Shown here in pieces: positions 33,556 to 41,593 of a stretch of DNA of 51,779 nt. A program made the position numbers and the translations under genes. The notes under the pieces were generated by a model. That model was not told the origin of the DNA and did not search any database. It was given only the letters and a program-made list of their open reading frames with translations. Each line of letters opens with the position of its first letter. The stretch's first letter is position 1. The stretch covers positions 1-51,779 of the forward strand of contig JAJYMS010000111.1 in the NCBI GenBank assembly GCA_021786825.1. Direction: 5' to 3'. This stretch comes from Bacillota bacterium (GTDB taxonomy: Bacteria; Bacillota; Sulfobacillia; JAMDAP01; JAJYMS01).

Positions 33556-35244
33556 CTACCGCCCCTCCAACAGTCGGACCGGCGTCATACTGTTCGCCGC
33601 GTCCAGCGCTACCTGGCGCTCCCGTCCCCAGACGCGGTAGGTCACTCCGCCCTGGGTCCAGGATACCGCCACCCCGGGACCGCTGGCTTGGAGGGTCGCG
33701 TCCTGCCCGCGGGCCAGACGAACCGTTTCCTTCGGTGCCCCCGGCCGCTTCACCGCGGGGGGCCGATCCGGAAGGTTGTCGGCCGCCTCCGCTCCGGCGG
33801 CGCCGCCGGCCACCAGCCAGAGGGTGCCGCCGGTAATTCCCGCGTCGTTGGTGGGCAAGGGGTGCTCCGTAACCCACAATTCGGCGGTGTAGTCGCTGGC
33901 CCTGCCCTCGACGCGCAGGGAAAAAGCCTGTCCCTGCGCAACCTCGCCGACCTTGGCCGGCAGTTCCACCGCCAGCCGGCTGGGGATCAGGCTGTGCAAC
34001 CCCCCGAGCCACGCCGGATTGGGGGCCTTGGACGGCGTTTTGTCAATCAGGGACCAGTCCACGCCTTCCGTGTACCGGTTGCCGGCGTTCCAGACCAGAA
34101 ACGACCGGATCCCGGCGCCCGCCAGGGCCTGCAGTTCCGCCTCGACTTCCTTGGGACCATAGGGGGGCCAGCCCAGGTCGTAGTCCTGGATCCAGGGCCG
34201 CTGAACCTCCAGCGGGAGGTCGGCCGTGCGCTGCTCGGCGGCGGCGACGGTCTGCCACACCGTGTCGTAAGGGCGGGCGTTGGGGTTGGGGATGCCGAAT
34301 TCCCCCTTGGCGTAGAGCGAGGGGTAGTCCATCGGGGAGATGTAGTCCACCACACGGGCCATTTCCGGGTAGCTTTGGCCGACCCCCTGGTCGCCGGTGG
34401 TCACCGAGGTGATGCCGAAGACGTCGGCCGACACGGGCACCCCCGCCTGCCGCCGGATCGTTTTGCGCGCCTCCTTCAAGAAGCCGGTGACTTGCGCGAT
34501 CCGGTCCTGCGCCGGGGTGTTTTCGTTGTAGCCCGGCAACCGACTTTCCGGCAGCCGGATGTAGTCGTACTGGATTTCGTCAAACCCCGTCTTCGCCGCC
34601 GCCACGCCGATCTCGATGTTGTAGTCCCGCGCTTCGCGGCTCCAGGGGCTGAGCCAACTGATGCCGCGATAGTCGTGCCAAAGGCGACCGCCTTGTACCA
34701 CGGCCCACTTGGGGCTCTTGCGGGAGGCGTAGGGGTCCGCGAAGGTGACCACGCGCCCGATTACATAGACGCCGTTGGCGTGGAGCAACTGCAACATAGC
34801 CTTGATGTCGGCGATCTTGCCGGTGTCCGCGCCGATGGCGGAGGCCCGGGTGCCGGGCAGGTCGAAGGAGAGCCGCCCGTCGTCGTCCTTCACGTCGATC
34901 ACCAAGGTATTCAGGTGATTTCGTTGCACGTAGGACAACTCTTCGGCCAGGCGCCGGCTCGAGCCCGCCGTCCAGCCGGTGAGGTAGATGCCGCGCACGT
35001 GCTCCGGCGTCCTGAGGTGGAGCGGCGGAGCCGGGTGTTCAGCCGGCGGCCTGGGATCACCGACAGGCGGCGCAGAGCCCTTGGCGCCTCCGGCGGCGGA
35101 GGCTGGATCCGGGGACTCAGCGGCCACGGCCCGGGTGCCCCAGGTCACCCGCGGGGTCCTGCAACCGGAGAGTCCGGCCAGCACCGCCAGGAGCGCGATC
35201 CCCACCAAACCCGTACCGCCGAGCCGGCTGAACCAACGCTGCAT
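33556..35244 (-). CDS. Putative glycoside hydrolase lipoprotein (DUF4015) with C-terminal extension
   Basis: Lipobox LSGC; VRGIYLT, VIDVKDDDG, GFDEIQYDYIR, SADVFG, ISPMDYPS, RPWIQD, WNAGNRY. Confidence 0.85.
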   Translation of the reverse strand: MQRWFSRLGGTGLVGIALLAVLAGLSGCRTPRVTWGTRAVAAESPDPASAAGGAKGSAPPVGDPRPPAEHPAPPLHLRTPEHVRGIYLTGWTAGSSRRLAEELSYVQRNHLNTLVIDVKDDDGRLSFDLPGTRASAIGADTGKIADIKAMLQLLHANGVYVIGRVVTFADPYASRKSPKWAVVQGGRLWHDYRGISWLSPWSREARDYNIEIGVAAAKTGFDEIQYDYIRLPESRLPGYNENTPAQDRIAQVTGFLKEARKTIRRQAGVPVSADVFGITSVTTGDQGVGQSYPEMARVVDYISPMDYPSLYAKGEFGIPNPNARPYDTVWQTVAAAEQRTADLPLEVQRPWIQDYDLGWPPYGPKEVEAELQALAGAGIRSFLVWNAGNRYTEGVDWSLIDKTPSKAPNPAWLGGLHSLIPSRLAVELPAKVGEVAQGQAFSLRVEGRASDYTAELWVTEHPLPTNDAGITGGTLWLVAGGAAGAEAADNLPDRPPAVKRPGAPKETVRLARGQDATLQASGPGVAVSWTQGGVTYRVWGRERQVALDAANSMTPVRLLEGR

Positions 35245-35373: not shown

Positions 35374-35402
35374 TTGTATCAGGGCAGCCGGCGCCATATA
35401 AT
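35374..35402 (+). promoter_or_regulatory. SigA promoter of the futalosine operon
   Basis: TTGTAT-N17-TATAAT. Confidence 0.75.
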
Positions 35403-35439: not shown

Positions 35440-36318
35440 GTGTCGGACGCGCCCTTGCCCCCGGAGCGGATCCCCCGCGCCTCTCTTGCGGTGATCGGCG
35501 GTTCGGGCACCTTCTCGAGCCGATTCCCGGAGGATTTGGAGGATCCAGCAGTACGGGTGTTGGCCAAGAACCTGCGGTTTGACACGCCTTACGGCCCCAG
35601 CCCCCTCTTCAAGCTGTTCAGCCTGTCCGCGGCCGCGGGAGAGGAGAAGCTGGTGCTGACGGTCAAGATGCACGGGCGCCGTTTCGGGGTCACCGCGGCG
35701 GACGCCTCGCGGCAGGTCTTCTGGGTGTTCCAGCAGGCGGGGGTTAAGAAGATCCTGGCCGAGGGCGGCGTCGGCGGCGCCAACCACCTGCTGGAGCTGC
35801 GCGACATGGTGGTCCCCGACGACTACATCGACCTGTCCCTGCGGCGCGACGTCGATCTGGGAGGCCCCTACCTGGGGGTGATGCGCCGCCCCGTCTGTTC
35901 CCAGCTCGCCCAGGAACTGATCCGGGCGGCGAACGCTCACGCCCGCCGTCATCAGGACCGGCGCGTTTTCGGCCGCGGCGTGTACGCCGTGACCGACGGG
36001 CGCCATTTTGAGAGCGTCGCTGAGGTTGCCATGCTGCGGCGCCTGGGGGCCGACATCGTGGGGATGACCATGTGCCCGGAGGTCTACCTGGCGCGTGAGA
36101 TCGGGGCCTGCTACGCCGGCCTTTACATCGTGGTCAACTATGGCGAAGGGGTGATCCGCGAATGGAACCACGCCGACCTCGAGCAGATTTTCTACGAGGA
36201 GGCGCGGCCGGTCGGCCGCATGCTGCTGGAAGCCCTGCGCCGGACCGGCGAGGACCAGGGTTGCGGCTGCCCGGATTTGCGCAAGCCCACCCTGCTGGTG
36301 GAAAGGCCTGAGGAGTGA
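35440..36318 (+). CDS. MTAP/PNP-family nucleoside phosphorylase-like protein
   Basis: VIGGSG, TPYG, VPDDYID, GADIVGMT..PE..LARE, VVNYGEG. Confidence 0.88.
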   Translation: MSDAPLPPERIPRASLAVIGGSGTFSSRFPEDLEDPAVRVLAKNLRFDTPYGPSPLFKLFSLSAAAGEEKLVLTVKMHGRRFGVTAADASRQVFWVFQQAGVKKILAEGGVGGANHLLELRDMVVPDDYIDLSLRRDVDLGGPYLGVMRRPVCSQLAQELIRAANAHARRHQDRRVFGRGVYAVTDGRHFESVAEVAMLRRLGADIVGMTMCPEVYLAREIGACYAGLYIVVNYGEGVIREWNHADLEQIFYEEARPVGRMLLEALRRTGEDQGCGCPDLRKPTLLVERPEE

Positions 36319-36325
36319 AGGCGTC

Positions 36326-37420
36326 GTGACCGGGATCGCGGCGAAAGTGCGGCGAGGGGAGCGACTCTCCGCCGCGGAAGGGCTGCAACTGCTGACTTCC
36401 ACCGACCTGCTGACCCTCGGGCGCCTGGCGGACCAGGCCCGGCGCGACAAAGTCGGCGACGCGGTCTACTTCGTGGTGAACACCCACCTCAACCACACCA
36501 ACGTGTGCTGGTTGAACTGCAAGTTCTGCGCCTTCTCCCGCCGCCCAGGGGACCCCGAAGCCTACCTCATGGACCCTGAGGAGGTCGAGTCGCGGTGCGC
36601 CTCCCTGGCGGGCCGAGGATTCCGGGAACTGCACATCGTGGGGGGAGTGCATCCCGGGCTGAGGCTGGAGTACTACGAGGCCATCCTCCGCGCGGCGCGG
36701 CGCCGGTTGCCGGAGATCATGATCCAGGCCTTCACCGCGGTGGAGGTGGACTACCTGGCCGGCAAGGCCGGCCTCAGCCTTTCCGCTTGCCTGGAGCGCT
36801 TGCGCGCGGCCGGGCTGGACGCGTTGCCGGGTGGCGGGGCGGAGATTTTCGCCCCCCGGGTGCGGGAACTGGTCTGCCCCCACAAGATCGGCGCCGACCG
36901 TTGGCTGGAGGTGCACGCGGCGGCCCACGCCCTGGGGATCCGCTCCAACGCCACGCTGCTGTACGGTCACTTGGAGCGACCGGACGAGGTCGTGGACCAC
37001 CTCATCCGCCTGCGGGAGTTGCAGGACCACACGGGCGGATTTCTGGCCTTCGCCGGCTTTGCCTTTCACCCCGAGAATACCGCCCTGGCCCGGGAGTACG
37101 GGCTTTCCGGGGAAACCACCGGCTACGAGGACCTGCGCCTGCTCGCCGTCGCGCGGCTGCTGCTGGACAACTTTGCCCACGTGAAGGCCTTCTGGATGAC
37201 CATGGGGCTGAAACTGGCCCAGGTTTCGCTGAGCTTCGGGGTGAACGATTTGGACGGCACGGTGATGGAGGAGCGGATCGTGCACGCCGCGGGGGCCGAG
37301 ACCGGCCAGATGGTGCCCAAGGAGGAGTTCATCGAACTGATTCGCCAGGCCGGCCGGGTGCCGGTTGAACGCGACACGCTCTACCGCGTCATCCGGACCT
37401 ATCAGGCACCGCGCAGTTGA
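36326..37420 (+). CDS. mqnE: Aminofutalosine synthase-like radical SAM enzyme (copy 1)
   Basis: TNVCWLNCKFCAF, ELHIVGG, AFTAVE, PGGGAEIF, FHPENT, HVKAFW. Confidence 0.88.
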   Translation: MTGIAAKVRRGERLSAAEGLQLLTSTDLLTLGRLADQARRDKVGDAVYFVVNTHLNHTNVCWLNCKFCAFSRRPGDPEAYLMDPEEVESRCASLAGRGFRELHIVGGVHPGLRLEYYEAILRAARRRLPEIMIQAFTAVEVDYLAGKAGLSLSACLERLRAAGLDALPGGGAEIFAPRVRELVCPHKIGADRWLEVHAAAHALGIRSNATLLYGHLERPDEVVDHLIRLRELQDHTGGFLAFAGFAFHPENTALAREYGLSGETTGYEDLRLLAVARLLLDNFAHVKAFWMTMGLKLAQVSLSFGVNDLDGTVMEERIVHAAGAETGQMVPKEEFIELIRQAGRVPVERDTLYRVIRTYQAPRS

Positions 37421-37439
37421 TTCCGCAAGGGAGAGGGTT

Positions 37440-38291
37440 GTGACGCTTCGCCTGGGATGTATCGATTACCTGAACACCCTGCCGGTCCAGTTCGGCGTCG
37501 AGACCGGCGTGGTCCCCTGCGCCGCCCGCCTGGTGAAGGGAACCCCCGCCGAGCTCAACGAGCTCTTTGGGCAGGGGAAGGTCGACGCCGCTCCCATCTC
37601 CTCCATCCAGTACGCCCGGTTGCACCGGGAGGCCCTGGTCCTGCCGGGGCTTTGCGTGGCCGCGGCCGGCGAGGTGCGAAGCATCCTGCTCTTCTCCCAC
37701 CGCCCGCCCCGGGAGCTCGAGGGAGGTGAGGTGGCCTTGACCACCGCCTCGGCCACCTCCGTCGTCCTGGCGCGGATCCTGCTGGAGCGTTACTACCGGG
37801 TCGCGGTGGGCTATCGGGCGGCGAGGCCGATCCTGCCCGAGATGCTGGAACGGGCGGAGGCGGCCCTGCTGATCGGGGACGACGCTCTGCGCGCCGCCGA
37901 GGAGGAGCGCCGGCGGGGGGAACTGGTCATCACCGACCTGGGGGAGGCTTGGCGGGAGTGGACCGGGGAAGCGATGGTCTACGCCCTCTGGGCCGTCCGG
38001 GAGGAGGTCGCCGTCCGCCAGCCGGCCGAGTTGGCTGCCTTGGCGGGGGCCCTGGCGACCAGCCTGCAGTACGGCCGGTCGCACCGGGAGGAGCTGGTGG
38101 GCTACGGAGCCGGGCGGGCGGGGCTGCCGCTGCCCACGGTGCGGCGTTACTTTGATACCATCGAGAACGAATTAACCCCCGCTCTGGAGCGGGGACTGAT
38201 GACCTACTTCCGGTGGGCGCTGGCGGTCGGAGCGTTACCGGACCTGCCTGGGTTGCGGTTCTGGGTTCCCCGGGAGGAGATGGTCGGGTGA
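37440..38291 (+). CDS. mqnA: Chorismate dehydratase
   Basis: LGCIDYLNTLP, SATSVVL, LLIGDDAL, DLGEAWREWTG..MVYALW. Confidence 0.92.
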   Translation: MTLRLGCIDYLNTLPVQFGVETGVVPCAARLVKGTPAELNELFGQGKVDAAPISSIQYARLHREALVLPGLCVAAAGEVRSILLFSHRPPRELEGGEVALTTASATSVVLARILLERYYRVAVGYRAARPILPEMLERAEAALLIGDDALRAAEEERRRGELVITDLGEAWREWTGEAMVYALWAVREEVAVRQPAELAALAGALATSLQYGRSHREELVGYGAGRAGLPLPTVRRYFDTIENELTPALERGLMTYFRWALAVGALPDLPGLRFWVPREEMVG

Positions 38292-39418
38292 GCGGGGGAG
38301 AAGGGGTCCGGGTCAGTCCTGTCGTTCTCCGGGTCGCCCCGGAGCTGGGCGAAGTCGTCCGGAAGGTCCAGGCGGGGGAGCGCCTGGGGCCCCAGGACGG
38401 GCTCCTCCTGATGCGGACGGAGAACCTGATGGCGGTCGGCCAACTGGCCAACGAGGCGCGCCGCCGGCGGGCGGGGAACCGCGTCTATTTCAACAACAAC
38501 GCCCATATCAACTACTCCAATGTCTGCGCCATCCACTGCCGGTTTTGCGCCTTCGGCCGGGCCCGGCAGGAGCCCGGGGCCTACACCATGACCCGGGGGG
38601 AAATCCTTGAACTGGCCCAGACCTACGCCCAGGCCGGCGTCACCGAACTGCACATCGTGGGGGGTAACCACCCCGATCTCCCCCTGGAGTTTTTCGAAGC
38701 GACCCTCCGGAGCCTGCGCGAGGCCCTCCCGGCGGTGCACCTGAAGGCCCTCACGGCGGTGGAGATCGACCACCTGGCGAACCTGGCGGGAATAGGCCCC
38801 GAGGCGGTCCTGCGGCGGCTGCAGGCCGCCGGACTGGGCTCCCTGCCCGGCGGCGGGGCGGAGAATTTCAGCCCCCGCGTGCGGGCCTTGATCTGCCCGG
38901 CCAAGATCTCCGGGCGGCGGTGGCTGGAGATTCACCGCCTGGCCCACGGCCTGGGGATCCGTTCCACCGCCACGATGCTTTACGGGACGGTGGAGACCGC
39001 GGAGGAGGTCATCGATCACCTGCTGGCCCTGCGGGAGCTGCAGGACCAGACCGGAGGGTTCCAGGCCTTCGTTCCGCTGGCCTTTCATCCCCGGAACACC
39101 GGCCTGGACTACCTCCCCGGCCCGACCGGCCAGGACGACCTGCGGATGGTGGCCGTGGCCCGGCTGATGCTGGACAATTTCAAGTACCTCAAGGCCTACT
39201 GGGTGATGCTCACCCCGCGGCTGGCCCAGGTCGCCCTTGCCTTCGGGGCCAACGACCTGGACGGGACGGTGCGCCGGGAGCGCATCTCCCACGAGGCCGG
39301 GGCGACCAGTCCCCAGGAACAGACCAAGGAAGATTTCCTGCGCGCGATTCGCGAAGTCGGGCTCGTTCCCGCCGAGCGGGACACCCTCTATCGCGTCGTC
39401 CGGGAGTATCCCGCGTGA
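38288..39418 (+). CDS. mqnE: Aminofutalosine synthase-like radical SAM enzyme (copy 2)
   Basis: SNVCAIHCRFCAF, ELHIVGG, ALTAVE, PGGGAE, FHPRNT, LKAYW, DLDGT. Confidence 0.85.
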   Translation: MSGGEGVRVSPVVLRVAPELGEVVRKVQAGERLGPQDGLLLMRTENLMAVGQLANEARRRRAGNRVYFNNNAHINYSNVCAIHCRFCAFGRARQEPGAYTMTRGEILELAQTYAQAGVTELHIVGGNHPDLPLEFFEATLRSLREALPAVHLKALTAVEIDHLANLAGIGPEAVLRRLQAAGLGSLPGGGAENFSPRVRALICPAKISGRRWLEIHRLAHGLGIRSTATMLYGTVETAEEVIDHLLALRELQDQTGGFQAFVPLAFHPRNTGLDYLPGPTGQDDLRMVAVARLMLDNFKYLKAYWVMLTPRLAQVALAFGANDLDGTVRRERISHEAGATSPQEQTKEDFLRAIREVGLVPAERDTLYRVVREYPA

Positions 39419-40512
39419 TCGGGCCGCCACGAATGCTTGGGCCTGACGCTGGCGCGGTCCTGGAGAAGGCCCTGGACGGCCGGCGGCTGGAGGTGGAGGA
39501 GGGCCTGAGCCTCTTGCAGGCGGCGGATCTGGCCGAACTGGCGGCCGCGGCCGGGGAGGTGGCCCGGCGGCGCCACCCCGACCGGACGGTCACCTTCGTG
39601 GTGGACCGCAACATCAACTACACCAACATCTGCGTGACCCGGTGCCGCTTTTGCGCTTTTCACCGTTCCGCCGGCGACCCTGATGCCTATGTGCTCCCGC
39701 TGGAGGAAATTCTGGCCAAGGTGGAGGAGGCGGTCGCCCTCGGGGCCACCCAGCTCCTGATCCAAGGCGGGCACCATCCCACGCTGAAGTTCGACTACTA
39801 CCTGGAGATGTGCCGGCGCATCCGGGACCGCTTTCCCCAGGTGGACGTGCACTCTTTCTCGCCGTCGGAGGTGCTGCACTTCTCGCGCACCTACCGGCTG
39901 CCCGTCCGCCGGGTGCTGGAGGAACTGCGGGGGGCCGGCCTGGCCTCTCTGCCGGGCGGGGGCGCGGAGATCCTGGACGACCGGGTGCGGGGGGCGGTGT
40001 CCCCGGCCAAGAACACCTGGAGTGAATGGATGGGGGTGATGGAGGCAGCCGCCGACCTCGGGTTGAAGGCTACGGCGACCATGATGTTCGGCCACGTGGA
40101 AACCCTGGAGGAACGCATCCTGCACCTGGAGCGGATCCGGCAGGTGCAGGACCGGAAGGGGGTCTTCCGGGCCTTCATTCCGTGGACGTATCAACCCGGC
40201 AACACTCGGCTGGGGGGAACCGCGGCCAGCGCCTTCGACTACCTGCGCACGGTGGCTGTTTCGCGCCTGTACCTGGACAACGTCGAGAACCTGCAGGCGT
40301 CGTGGGTCACCCAGGGGGGCAAGGTGGCCCAACTCTCCCTGGACTGCGGGTGCAACGACTTCGGAGGGACGATGCTGGAGGAGAACGTCGTCCGCTCCGC
40401 CGGGGTGAGTTTCCGCCTGAGCCAGGCGGAGGTGATCGCGCTGATCCGGGGGGCCGGAAGGCAGCCGGCGAAACGAAACACCCGCTACGAAATCCTGGAA
40501 CGGTATGACTAA
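39415..40512 (+). CDS. mqnC: Cyclic dehypoxanthinyl futalosine synthase
   Basis: VDRNINYTNICVTRCRFCAF, QGGHHP, TATMMFG, QASWVTQG, DFGGTMLEENVV. Confidence 0.93.
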   Translation: MIGPPRMLGPDAGAVLEKALDGRRLEVEEGLSLLQAADLAELAAAAGEVARRRHPDRTVTFVVDRNINYTNICVTRCRFCAFHRSAGDPDAYVLPLEEILAKVEEAVALGATQLLIQGGHHPTLKFDYYLEMCRRIRDRFPQVDVHSFSPSEVLHFSRTYRLPVRRVLEELRGAGLASLPGGGAEILDDRVRGAVSPAKNTWSEWMGVMEAAADLGLKATATMMFGHVETLEERILHLERIRQVQDRKGVFRAFIPWTYQPGNTRLGGTAASAFDYLRTVAVSRLYLDNVENLQASWVTQGGKVAQLSLDCGCNDFGGTMLEENVVRSAGVSFRLSQAEVIALIRGAGRQPAKRNTRYEILERYD

Positions 40513-40515
40513 AGG

Positions 40516-40545
40516 AACGGCCCCGGGGAGGGGCCGCTCTTCCTT
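40516..40545 (+). terminator. Hairpin between convergent mqnC and DUF1540 genes
   Basis: CGGCCCC-N5-GGGGCCG followed by a pyrimidine tract. Confidence 0.5.
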
Positions 40546-40768
40546 ACTGCTTGGCGTTCTTGGAGACGAAAGTTCTACAGCAGGTGTGTTCCGAGGTAGT
40601 CGCCCGCGGACGTGCCGTCGATCCGACGGTGCCCACCTCCATGGTCGCGCCGCCGGGGGCGGCGGTCCGGTTGTGCTCTACCATGATTCTGTCGGCCTTG
40701 CAGCGATCCCCGCTCCCCCAGTAGTGGCAGGCGTCGACAATGCAGCCGATCTCCTGGCTACCAGCCAT
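40544..40768 (-). CDS. DUF1540 domain protein (second)
   Basis: IGCIVDACHYW...CKADRIMV...TCCRTF; RBS AAAGGAGGTG. Confidence 0.88.
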   Translation of the reverse strand: MAGSQEIGCIVDACHYWGSGDRCKADRIMVEHNRTAAPGGATMEVGTVGSTARPRATTSEHTCCRTFVSKNAKQ

Positions 40769-40915: not shown

Positions 40916-41593
40916 ATGACCGGTACGGTGATCAACACTTTAGCCATCGTCGCGGGTTCCCTGTTGGGCAGCTTCGTGCTGCGCGGCGTCCCGGAAGGGA
41001 TCAAGGTTACGGTCATCAAGGGCATCGGGCTTTCGGTAGCGCTGATCGGCCTTTCCATGGGCCTGGGGGGCAAGGAGCCGCTGGTGCTGATCGGAAGTCT
41101 CGCCCTGGGCGGGGTGGCGGGGGAAGGACTGCGCCTGGACGACCGCCTGAACGCCCTGGGGGAGCGCCTGCAGGCGCGCTGGGGCGGGGTGGGCGGGCAG
41201 TTCGCGCAGGGGTTCGTGACCGCCAGCCTGGTCTACTGCGTCGGGGCCATGGCGGTGATGGGAGCGCTCCAGGACGGCCTTTCCGGCGATTACAGCATCC
41301 TGCTGGCCAAGTCGATGTTGGACGGGATCACCGCCGTGTTCTTCTCCGCCGCGATGGGGGTTGGAGTGGCTTTCTCCGCGATCCCGGTGTTCCTCTATCA
41401 GGGGGGCATCGCGCTGCTGGCCGGCTGGGTCAAGGGCGCGCTGAGCGAACCGGTCGTGCGGGAGATGACGGCCGTGGGCGGGCTCCTGATCCTGGGTATC
41501 GGGCTCAACTTGCTGGAGGCGGCGAGGGTAAAGGTGGCCAACCTGCTTCCCGCCATCCTGGTCGCGGCGGCCTGGATGCGGCTCAAGGGTTGA
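40916..41593 (+). CDS. DUF554 family membrane protein
   Basis: GTVIN, YCVGAMAVMG, KSMLDG, YQG, KVANLLP. Confidence 0.92.
   Translation: MTGTVINTLAIVAGSLLGSFVLRGVPEGIKVTVIKGIGLSVALIGLSMGLGGKEPLVLIGSLALGGVAGEGLRLDDRLNALGERLQARWGGVGGQFAQGFVTASLVYCVGAMAVMGALQDGLSGDYSILLAKSMLDGITAVFFSAAMGVGVAFSAIPVFLYQGGIALLAGWVKGALSEPVVREMTAVGGLLILGIGLNLLEAARVKVANLLPAILVAAAWMRLKG

Follow-up and report, generated by a model that had tools for sequence, protein, structure and literature searches.

The gene at positions 35440–36318 (forward strand) of the window, i.e., of the whole 51,779-nt stretch of Bacillota DNA analyzed here, very likely encodes a futalosine-pathway enzyme standing in for the mqnB–mqnD pair. 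Its 292-aa product has the MTAP fold and is a predicted futalosine nucleosidase, possibly a naphthoate synthase as well. The family is not new, and both its name and a predicted role as MqnD replacement are already in print. The accessible part of Ravcheev and Thiele (2016; PMC4746308) describes a PF01048 gene, "mqnZ," as the predicted replacement for mqnD, found in clusters with mqnC/mqnE or mqnEAC (Selenomonas, Megamonas, Mitsuokella, Pelotomaculum, Syntrophothermus, among others) and never with mqnD, and states that the assignment to the MqnD step had no further sequence support. We identify the window family with MqnZ by its PF01048 domain, taxa, clustering with mqn genes, and absence of mqnD, and not by a sequence match to MHY_27640. 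The first-pass annotation of this DNA had proposed a non-orthologous MqnB; that proposal and the published one each account for half of the absence pattern.

Besides PMC4746308, we found no literature assigning the family in a search to which most subscription papers were closed, and none on a double replacement or a nucleosidase reading. The name "mqnZ" does not occur in the main text of PMC5738691, and the accessible text of PMC8042841 and PMC13280913 only names the pathway enzymes. According to the available parts of two other articles, counts in Firmicutes were 24 for MqnA, 25 for MqnC, and 16 for MqnD (Zhi, 2014; PMC3914697), and promiscuous MTI phosphorylases could act in the futalosine pathway (Sekowska, 2018; PMC6302742). 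If our reading is true, a new activity would be added to the nucleoside phosphorylase superfamily, in its MTAP branch, the 2016 assignment of mqnZ would be corrected, and vitamin K2 pathway calls would be mended for hundreds of genomes; the genome collection contains 491 related stretches.

The mqn operon and the source genome

The reading frame is open over all 292 aa, starts with GTG, and has a GGGAG RBS-like site just 5' of it. As the first-pass annotation stated, it heads an mqnE–mqnA–mqnE–mqnC operon, the members of which were recognized by profile matches. A gap of 7 nt separates it from the first mqnE copy (aminofutalosine synthase, 36326–37420, +; TIGR03700 477.8 bits, cut-off 434.55), followed by mqnA (chorismate dehydratase, PF02621; longest ORF 37365–38291, +, true start probably near 37437), the second mqnE copy (longest ORF 38213–39418, +, start probably later; 469.2 bits, above the same cut-off), and mqnC (cyclic dehypoxanthinyl futalosine synthase, 39415–40512, +; TIGR03699 495.5 bits, cut-off 428.1). 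A terminator-like hairpin was found directly 3' of mqnC (40518–40546, +), for which only the position is suggestive, as the hairpin scan of the region gave 6 sites vs. 3.8 expected. The shared promoter claimed previously is plausible: a possible sigma-A-type sequence, TTGTAT-17 nt-TATAAT, can be read at 35374–35402 (+), although the consensus scan listed no sites, since it required at least 4 of 6 matches per box and the −35 box here has 3. The two MqnE copies are full paralogues, 54% identical, both with the CxxxCxxC motif; tandem mqnE pairs were also observed in Selenomonadales loci and in the genome G030. The operon is flanked by a gene of a DUF554 membrane protein 3' of the terminator (40916–41593), which was found near the MqnZ family in none of 80 loci, and by a divergently oriented gene of a DUF4015 putative glycosyl hydrolase lipoprotein (33556–35244, −) with a paralogue on contig C160.

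The source genome (2.94 Mb in 274 contigs, 99.4% complete, 7.7% contamination) contains four PF01048 genes: MTAP, adjoining mtnA; an MTAP/MTIP-type gene, adjoining ndk and ahcY; a uridine phosphorylase-like gene; and the MqnZ-family gene. The lack of an MqnB/MTAN gene, noted earlier for the window, holds for the whole genome, where nothing exceeded the MqnB cut-off (the top TIGR03664 match, 25.8 bits, was the uridine phosphorylase-like gene) and MTAN was not found. Neither TIGR03664 (MqnB) nor NF004079 (MTAN) was among the NCBIfam matches of the window protein. The only PF02621 gene is mqnA, the window protein itself does not belong to PF02621, and the MqnD query gave no match in the genome. 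With MqnB and MqnD both absent, two pathway steps are missing and not one, so that a replacement of MqnB only, which overlooked the absence of MqnD, leaves a second hole. The genes mqnL, mqnP, ubiE, and a ubiX-type gene are located elsewhere in the genome. Besides mqnL, about 12 matches to UbiD-family decarboxylases were detected (contigs C4, C15, C47, C82, C108, C126, C133, and C158), which is an unusual expansion.

Fold, active site, and sister clade

The AlphaFold model of the window protein (pLDDT 91) had its best structural matches among MTAPs and aligned with that of S. solfataricus (3T94) over 258 residues, with Z 29.6 and an rmsd of 2.5 Å. The model and the PF01048 match (121 bits) agree with the MTAP fold named in the first-pass annotation. 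The nearest structures are MTAP, MTIP, and PNP; the protein falls below every equivalog cut-off of these three groups (TIGR01694 114.8 vs. 274.85; NF006599 105.8 vs. 223), and in databases it is annotated as "MTAP family purine nucleoside phosphorylase" and nothing more. Close homologues (50–65% identity) are mostly from Bacillota and Aquicultor. The family shares with MTAP/MTIP (3T94/2A8Y, human 1CB0, and 3OZB) the fold, the equivalents of T18, H61, and T197 and, with 3OZB, the Glu/Asn pair of the purine pocket, whereas its identity to them is 22–31%, far under the family cut-offs, and it forms a separate clade (support 99). With MqnB (TIGR03664) and MTAN (NF004079) it has in common the PF01048 superfamily, probably the net reaction, and mutual exclusion with mqnB; given its nearest structures, it would be an independent recruitment. 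MqnD (PF02621; TTHA1568) occupies the same place in the gene content but is unrelated in fold and family.

Residues were mapped on human MTAP, with active-site roles taken from the accessible part of PMC5738077, and counted across 224 distinct core sequences. The motifs KMHG, AEGGVGG, DGRHFES, and VVNY reported previously all occur in the translation of 35440–36318. The phosphate site, earlier described as altered, has lost two ligands and kept three: Met77 (Met in 221 sequences, Phe in 3) replaces R60 and Gly109 (224/224) replaces T93, but Ser22 (T18), His78 (H61), and Ser/Thr210 (T197) are present in all 224 sequences, and position 76 is invariantly Lys or Arg. In the window, this Lys, the Met at the Arg60 position, and the retained His form K76-M77-H78 (35665–35673, +). 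The Glu supposed to have been gained at the phosphate-binding Thr is indeed present, but it stands beside it. E108-G109-G110 (35761–35769, +) aligns with human T92-T93-A94, and T92, the counterpart of Glu108, is not among the 15 active-site residues listed in the accessible part of PMC5738077.

The purine pocket (Phe/Trp190, Glu191, and Asn233) is fully conserved in the core. Glu191 and Asn233 occur in 224/224 sequences and align with the corresponding pair in P. aeruginosa MTI phosphorylase (3OZB), in agreement with the 6-oxopurine preference that the first-pass annotation tied to the Asn. Such a Glu/Asn pair sets the preference for 6-oxopurines. In the window gene, the Glu lies within D186-G-R188-H189-F-E191-S (35995–36015, +), of which the Asp, Arg, and His are marks of the mqn-linked clade, and the Asn, at the position of MTAP Asp220, within N233-Y-G-E236 (36136–36147, +), ending in the invariant Glu236. 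Residues typical of the core are R135, L145, R149, D186, R188, and H189. Relative to MTAP, the family has, in addition to the Met and Gly substitutions at R60 and T93, Arg-His in place of P175-R176 and Leu in place of H137; at M196 it carries Gln, and only the window protein has Met.

The broader sister clade shows the same loss of Arg, Glu191, Asn233, and Glu236, and most of its members have an acidic residue at position 108. The sister clade and the core make up a single branch, separate from canonical MTAP, MTIP, and PNP (support 99 in a quick tree of 72 rows). None of 40 sister-clade loci, many of them near-copies, lies near mqn genes. The neighbors there are transporter and regulator genes; of the ORFs scanned, none encodes a linked sugar kinase or mutase. 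The sister-clade genes adjoin PnrA-like nucleoside ABC transporters, often heading an operon with them (L145–L147 and L242–L280); several of these loci also carry a gene with a V4R domain or a divergent sigma-54-type activator. Since this clade is not linked to mqn genes and has the same altered phosphate site, the alteration predates the link to menaquinone, and the Arg loss and Glu108 are not a futalosine adaptation. The case made earlier for a futalosine hydrolase, from the loss of Arg and Thr, is therefore only partly sustained: these residues are lost, but of the five side chains that bind phosphate three are still there, position 76 is always Lys or Arg, and Glu108 is off the Thr. We nevertheless infer hydrolysis to be more likely than phosphorolysis for the MqnZ-family enzyme, as the apparently unchanged MqnC favors net hydrolysis.

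Genomic linkage and mutual exclusion with mqnB–mqnD

The linkage to the pathway is conserved: mqnE, mqnA, or mqnC was present in the flanks of the MqnZ-family gene at 59 of 80 genome loci and at 36 of 40 core metagenome loci. The family gene is the first or the last of the mqn cluster; at unlinked loci, such as that of Pelotomaculum (L047), the same genome has its mqn genes elsewhere. Loci of Selenomonas, Mitsuokella (L074), and Syntrophothermus (L060) have the MqnZ-like arrangement with mqn genes, and loci of the Aquicultor type have the order mqnL-P-M-E-A-C-MqnZ-family gene-deaminase. Long homologues of the family were, in a crowded search, only RNase H fusions (P0123 and P0273), probably fusions of neighboring genes, as RNase H-like ORFs occur in several family loci. 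At three loci (L148–L150 in G052, G084, and G165) the family gene and an MTAN-like gene are separated by about 3 kb, in which genes of DUF362 Fe-S and radical-SAM proteins are located.

We searched a single even draw of 301 Bacillota genomes for PF02621, the MqnZ family, MqnD, and MqnB. The family was called in 46 genomes at E ≤ 1e-60, i.e., 43 strong matches (E < 1e-119) and 3 sister-type ones without PF02621. The MqnA/MqnD family PF02621 was present in 72 genomes, 43 of which had the MqnZ family, 25 MqnD, none both, and 4 neither. MqnB was detected in 23 genomes of the draw, each time directly adjoining mqnD, and in none of the 43 with the MqnZ family. Of 50 genomes hand-picked from the 80 loci, with an overlap of at least two genomes with the draw, 49 had PF02621, 8 had MTAN, and 1 had MqnB. 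The replacement of MqnB thus stands as far as the absence of mqnB goes, although these genomes lack MqnD as well. In about 60% of the futalosine-pathway Bacillota of the sample (43/72), both enzymes are absent; among them are sulfate reducers, acetogens, and Selenomonadales of the gut or rumen. One MqnZ-family gene would account for both holes.

A divergent second MqnD query gave a strong match in 1 of 56 MqnZ-family genomes. The draft assembly G029 has the family gene and mqnB–mqnD on another contig. Matches to MqnC exceeded the cut-off in 41 of the 42 other family genomes and in 23 of 25 MqnD genomes; MqnC is lacking in G265 and G291. Genome G117 (90% complete) has mqnE, mqnA, and mqnC and neither the MqnZ family nor mqnB–mqnD. 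In G126 (L139, 3936–4903), mqnD is split, mqnB is shortened beside an ORF resembling a recombinase, and no mqnC was detected, so that the pathway appears to be decaying.

Because related genomes are not independent, we preferred a tree of MqnC to a Fisher test. In a quick tree of 80 rows, the mqnB-plus-mqnD label needs 8 changes, at least 6 of which are forced by strong branches. Most Bacillota MqnD proteins are 71–87% identical to the copy of G029 across families, and their genomic contexts vary (L151–L156, L088), which suggests that mqnB–mqnD is a mobile, horizontally spread cassette. No residue differed in a fixed manner between the two genome types in MqnC (54 vs. 22 rows) or MqnA (44 vs. 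17 rows); in MqnE, the best column was position 289 (Phe 52/60 vs. Tyr 15/17). A changed order of steps, with MqnC acting on the nucleoside, is accordingly not supported by any fixed difference in MqnC, MqnA, or MqnE.

Two sources of a hidden MqnD were considered and rejected. ORF clustering of 100 loci returned only known mqn genes and lineage-specific housekeeping neighbors, with no second partner gene. Among extra PF02621 copies, three weak matches were ABC substrate-binding proteins and the remaining ones were MqnA-like or without an MqnD-level match, except in G029. Long MqnC proteins had no PF01048 partner among the 120 of 388 matches listed, which is weak evidence from a crowded search. 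Common among them were proteins of about 660–840 aa that combine radical-SAM with CofH/MqnC domains and are in many cases labeled as MqnE–MqnC fusions (P0274–P0392); one protein (P0393) unites methyltransferase, radical-SAM, and PF02621 domains.

Proposed role and alternative explanations

In the proposed pathway, MqnA and MqnE yield aminofutalosine, which an MtaD-type or operon-encoded deaminase would convert to futalosine. The MqnZ-family enzyme would hold the hypoxanthine with its Glu191/Asn233 pair and the benzoate arm with the family-specific Arg188/His189 region, and would release dehypoxanthine futalosine, more likely by hydrolysis than by phosphorolysis. An unchanged MqnC would cyclize this product, and the same ribose site may then open the cyclic compound to give 1,4-dihydroxy-6-naphthoate. 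The MqnD reaction is a cofactor-free ring opening followed by tautomerization and retro-aldol cleavage.

Removal of the purine from futalosine is the step predicted with good confidence, owing to the 6-oxo pocket together with a deaminase in every family genome checked. An MtaD-type deaminase occurs in 42 of 43 family genomes; since it was also found in all 24 MqnD genomes tested, it is a background feature of Bacillota. The 43rd genome, G089, lacks MtaD and has an intact 446-aa deaminase inside the mqn operon, though MTAN is present. Four Aquicultor-type genomes are also without MtaD, and at 5 of 5 such loci a deaminase directly follows the MqnZ-family gene. These deaminases are below the cut-off for aminofutalosine deaminase, and their substrate is thus a presumed one. 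As for other nucleosidases, MTAN exceeded its cut-off in 5 of 45 family-plus-sister genomes of the draw, where the family gene is kept though MqnD is absent. No PF01048 subfamily besides MqnZ is common to 10 fully listed family genomes, IU nucleoside hydrolase was absent in all 5 family genomes checked, and the closed genome G121 has, besides the MqnZ-family gene, only PNP-I and DeoD of PF01048.

That the enzyme also performs the MqnD step, and so has both activities, is to our mind the best single model, with somewhat less than an even chance of being correct. The second activity is possible on the grounds that MqnD is absent where the family gene occurs, no other partner was found, MqnC and MqnA are unchanged, and the gene persists beside MTAN; structure comparison revealed nothing specific to retro-aldol chemistry. 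The full scenario, in which an MTAP-fold phosphorylase became a nucleosidase and retro-aldol naphthoate synthase that represents the majority route in Bacillota and was repeatedly swapped with the mobile mqnB–mqnD cassette, is offered tentatively, being a little less probable again.

A serious, though less probable, alternative is that the gene replaces MqnB only, and the MqnD step is carried out by an unlinked enzyme, by a moonlighting MqnA, or without any enzyme. The pocket and the deaminase linkage fit this as well, the fold is a nucleoside-cleaving one, and the sister clade is linked to nucleosides. The genome G170, a relative of G089, also argues for it: at the syntenic site only 28 codons of the MqnZ-family gene are left and the deaminase of the operon is split, i.e., both decayed jointly, whereas mqnE, A, C, L, P, and M are intact and MTAN is present. 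As G170 has neither MqnD nor the MqnZ family, its D step has another source if menaquinone is still made. Replacement of MqnB alone would, however, need a second replacement gene at each of the at least 6 exchanges, and none was seen in the loci. Neither does it fit well with the lack of fixed changes in MqnA and the retention of the gene in MTAN-bearing genomes. A spontaneous D step is opposed by mqnD mutants, which accumulate cyclic dehypoxanthine futalosine.

The converse, a replacement of MqnD only with the purine removed by housekeeping phosphorylases or MTAN, is the published proposal for mqnZ (PMC4746308, as far as its text is accessible), and we consider it unlikely. The family never co-occurs with MqnD in the 301-genome draw and is kept beside MTAN, which suits this explanation. 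So does G207 (2 contigs, 99% complete), which has MqnA, MqnC, MqnD, and MqnE and lacks MqnB, MTAN, and the MqnZ family; its single MTAP/MTIP-type enzyme suggests that a housekeeping enzyme can take over the B step. The MqnD of G207 (L137, 5809–6624) is divergent, 36–40% identical to the Bacillota cassette type. Against the published proposal stands the full conservation of the purine pocket, given that the cyclic substrate lacks a purine. The occurrence of the deaminase follows that of the MqnZ-family gene, and the remaining PF01048 enzymes vary by genome, as G121 with only DeoD and PNP-I illustrates. In addition, Table S1 of PMC4746308 scores both mqnZ genomes, Megamonas and Mitsuokella, 0 not only for mqnD but also for mqnX, mqnB, and mtnN. 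Unlike the MqnZ of 2016, the enzyme considered here would also replace mqnB, and it keeps an intact 6-oxo purine pocket.

It is improbable that the protein is still a phosphorylase, the ribose-1-phosphate analogue of which passes through MqnC to a moonlighting MtnA and an aldolase, as in the 5'-deoxyadenosine DHAP shunt. Ser22, His78, Ser/Thr210, and the invariant Lys/Arg76 could still hold phosphate, and both absences would be explained. MtnA is present in 39 of 43 family genomes, but the other 4 are 99–100% complete, no adaptation of MqnC to a phosphorylated substrate was seen, and mtnA is not a conserved neighbor. Salvage of 5'-deoxyadenosine or 5'-deoxyinosine from the radical-SAM enzyme MqnC, outside the pathway proper, is very improbable: the MTI-phosphorylase-like base pocket and the adjoining radical-SAM genes would suit it, but it leaves the strict exclusion with mqnB–mqnD unexplained, and the source genome already has its canonical MTAP by mtnA and the MTAP/MTIP-type gene by ahcY.
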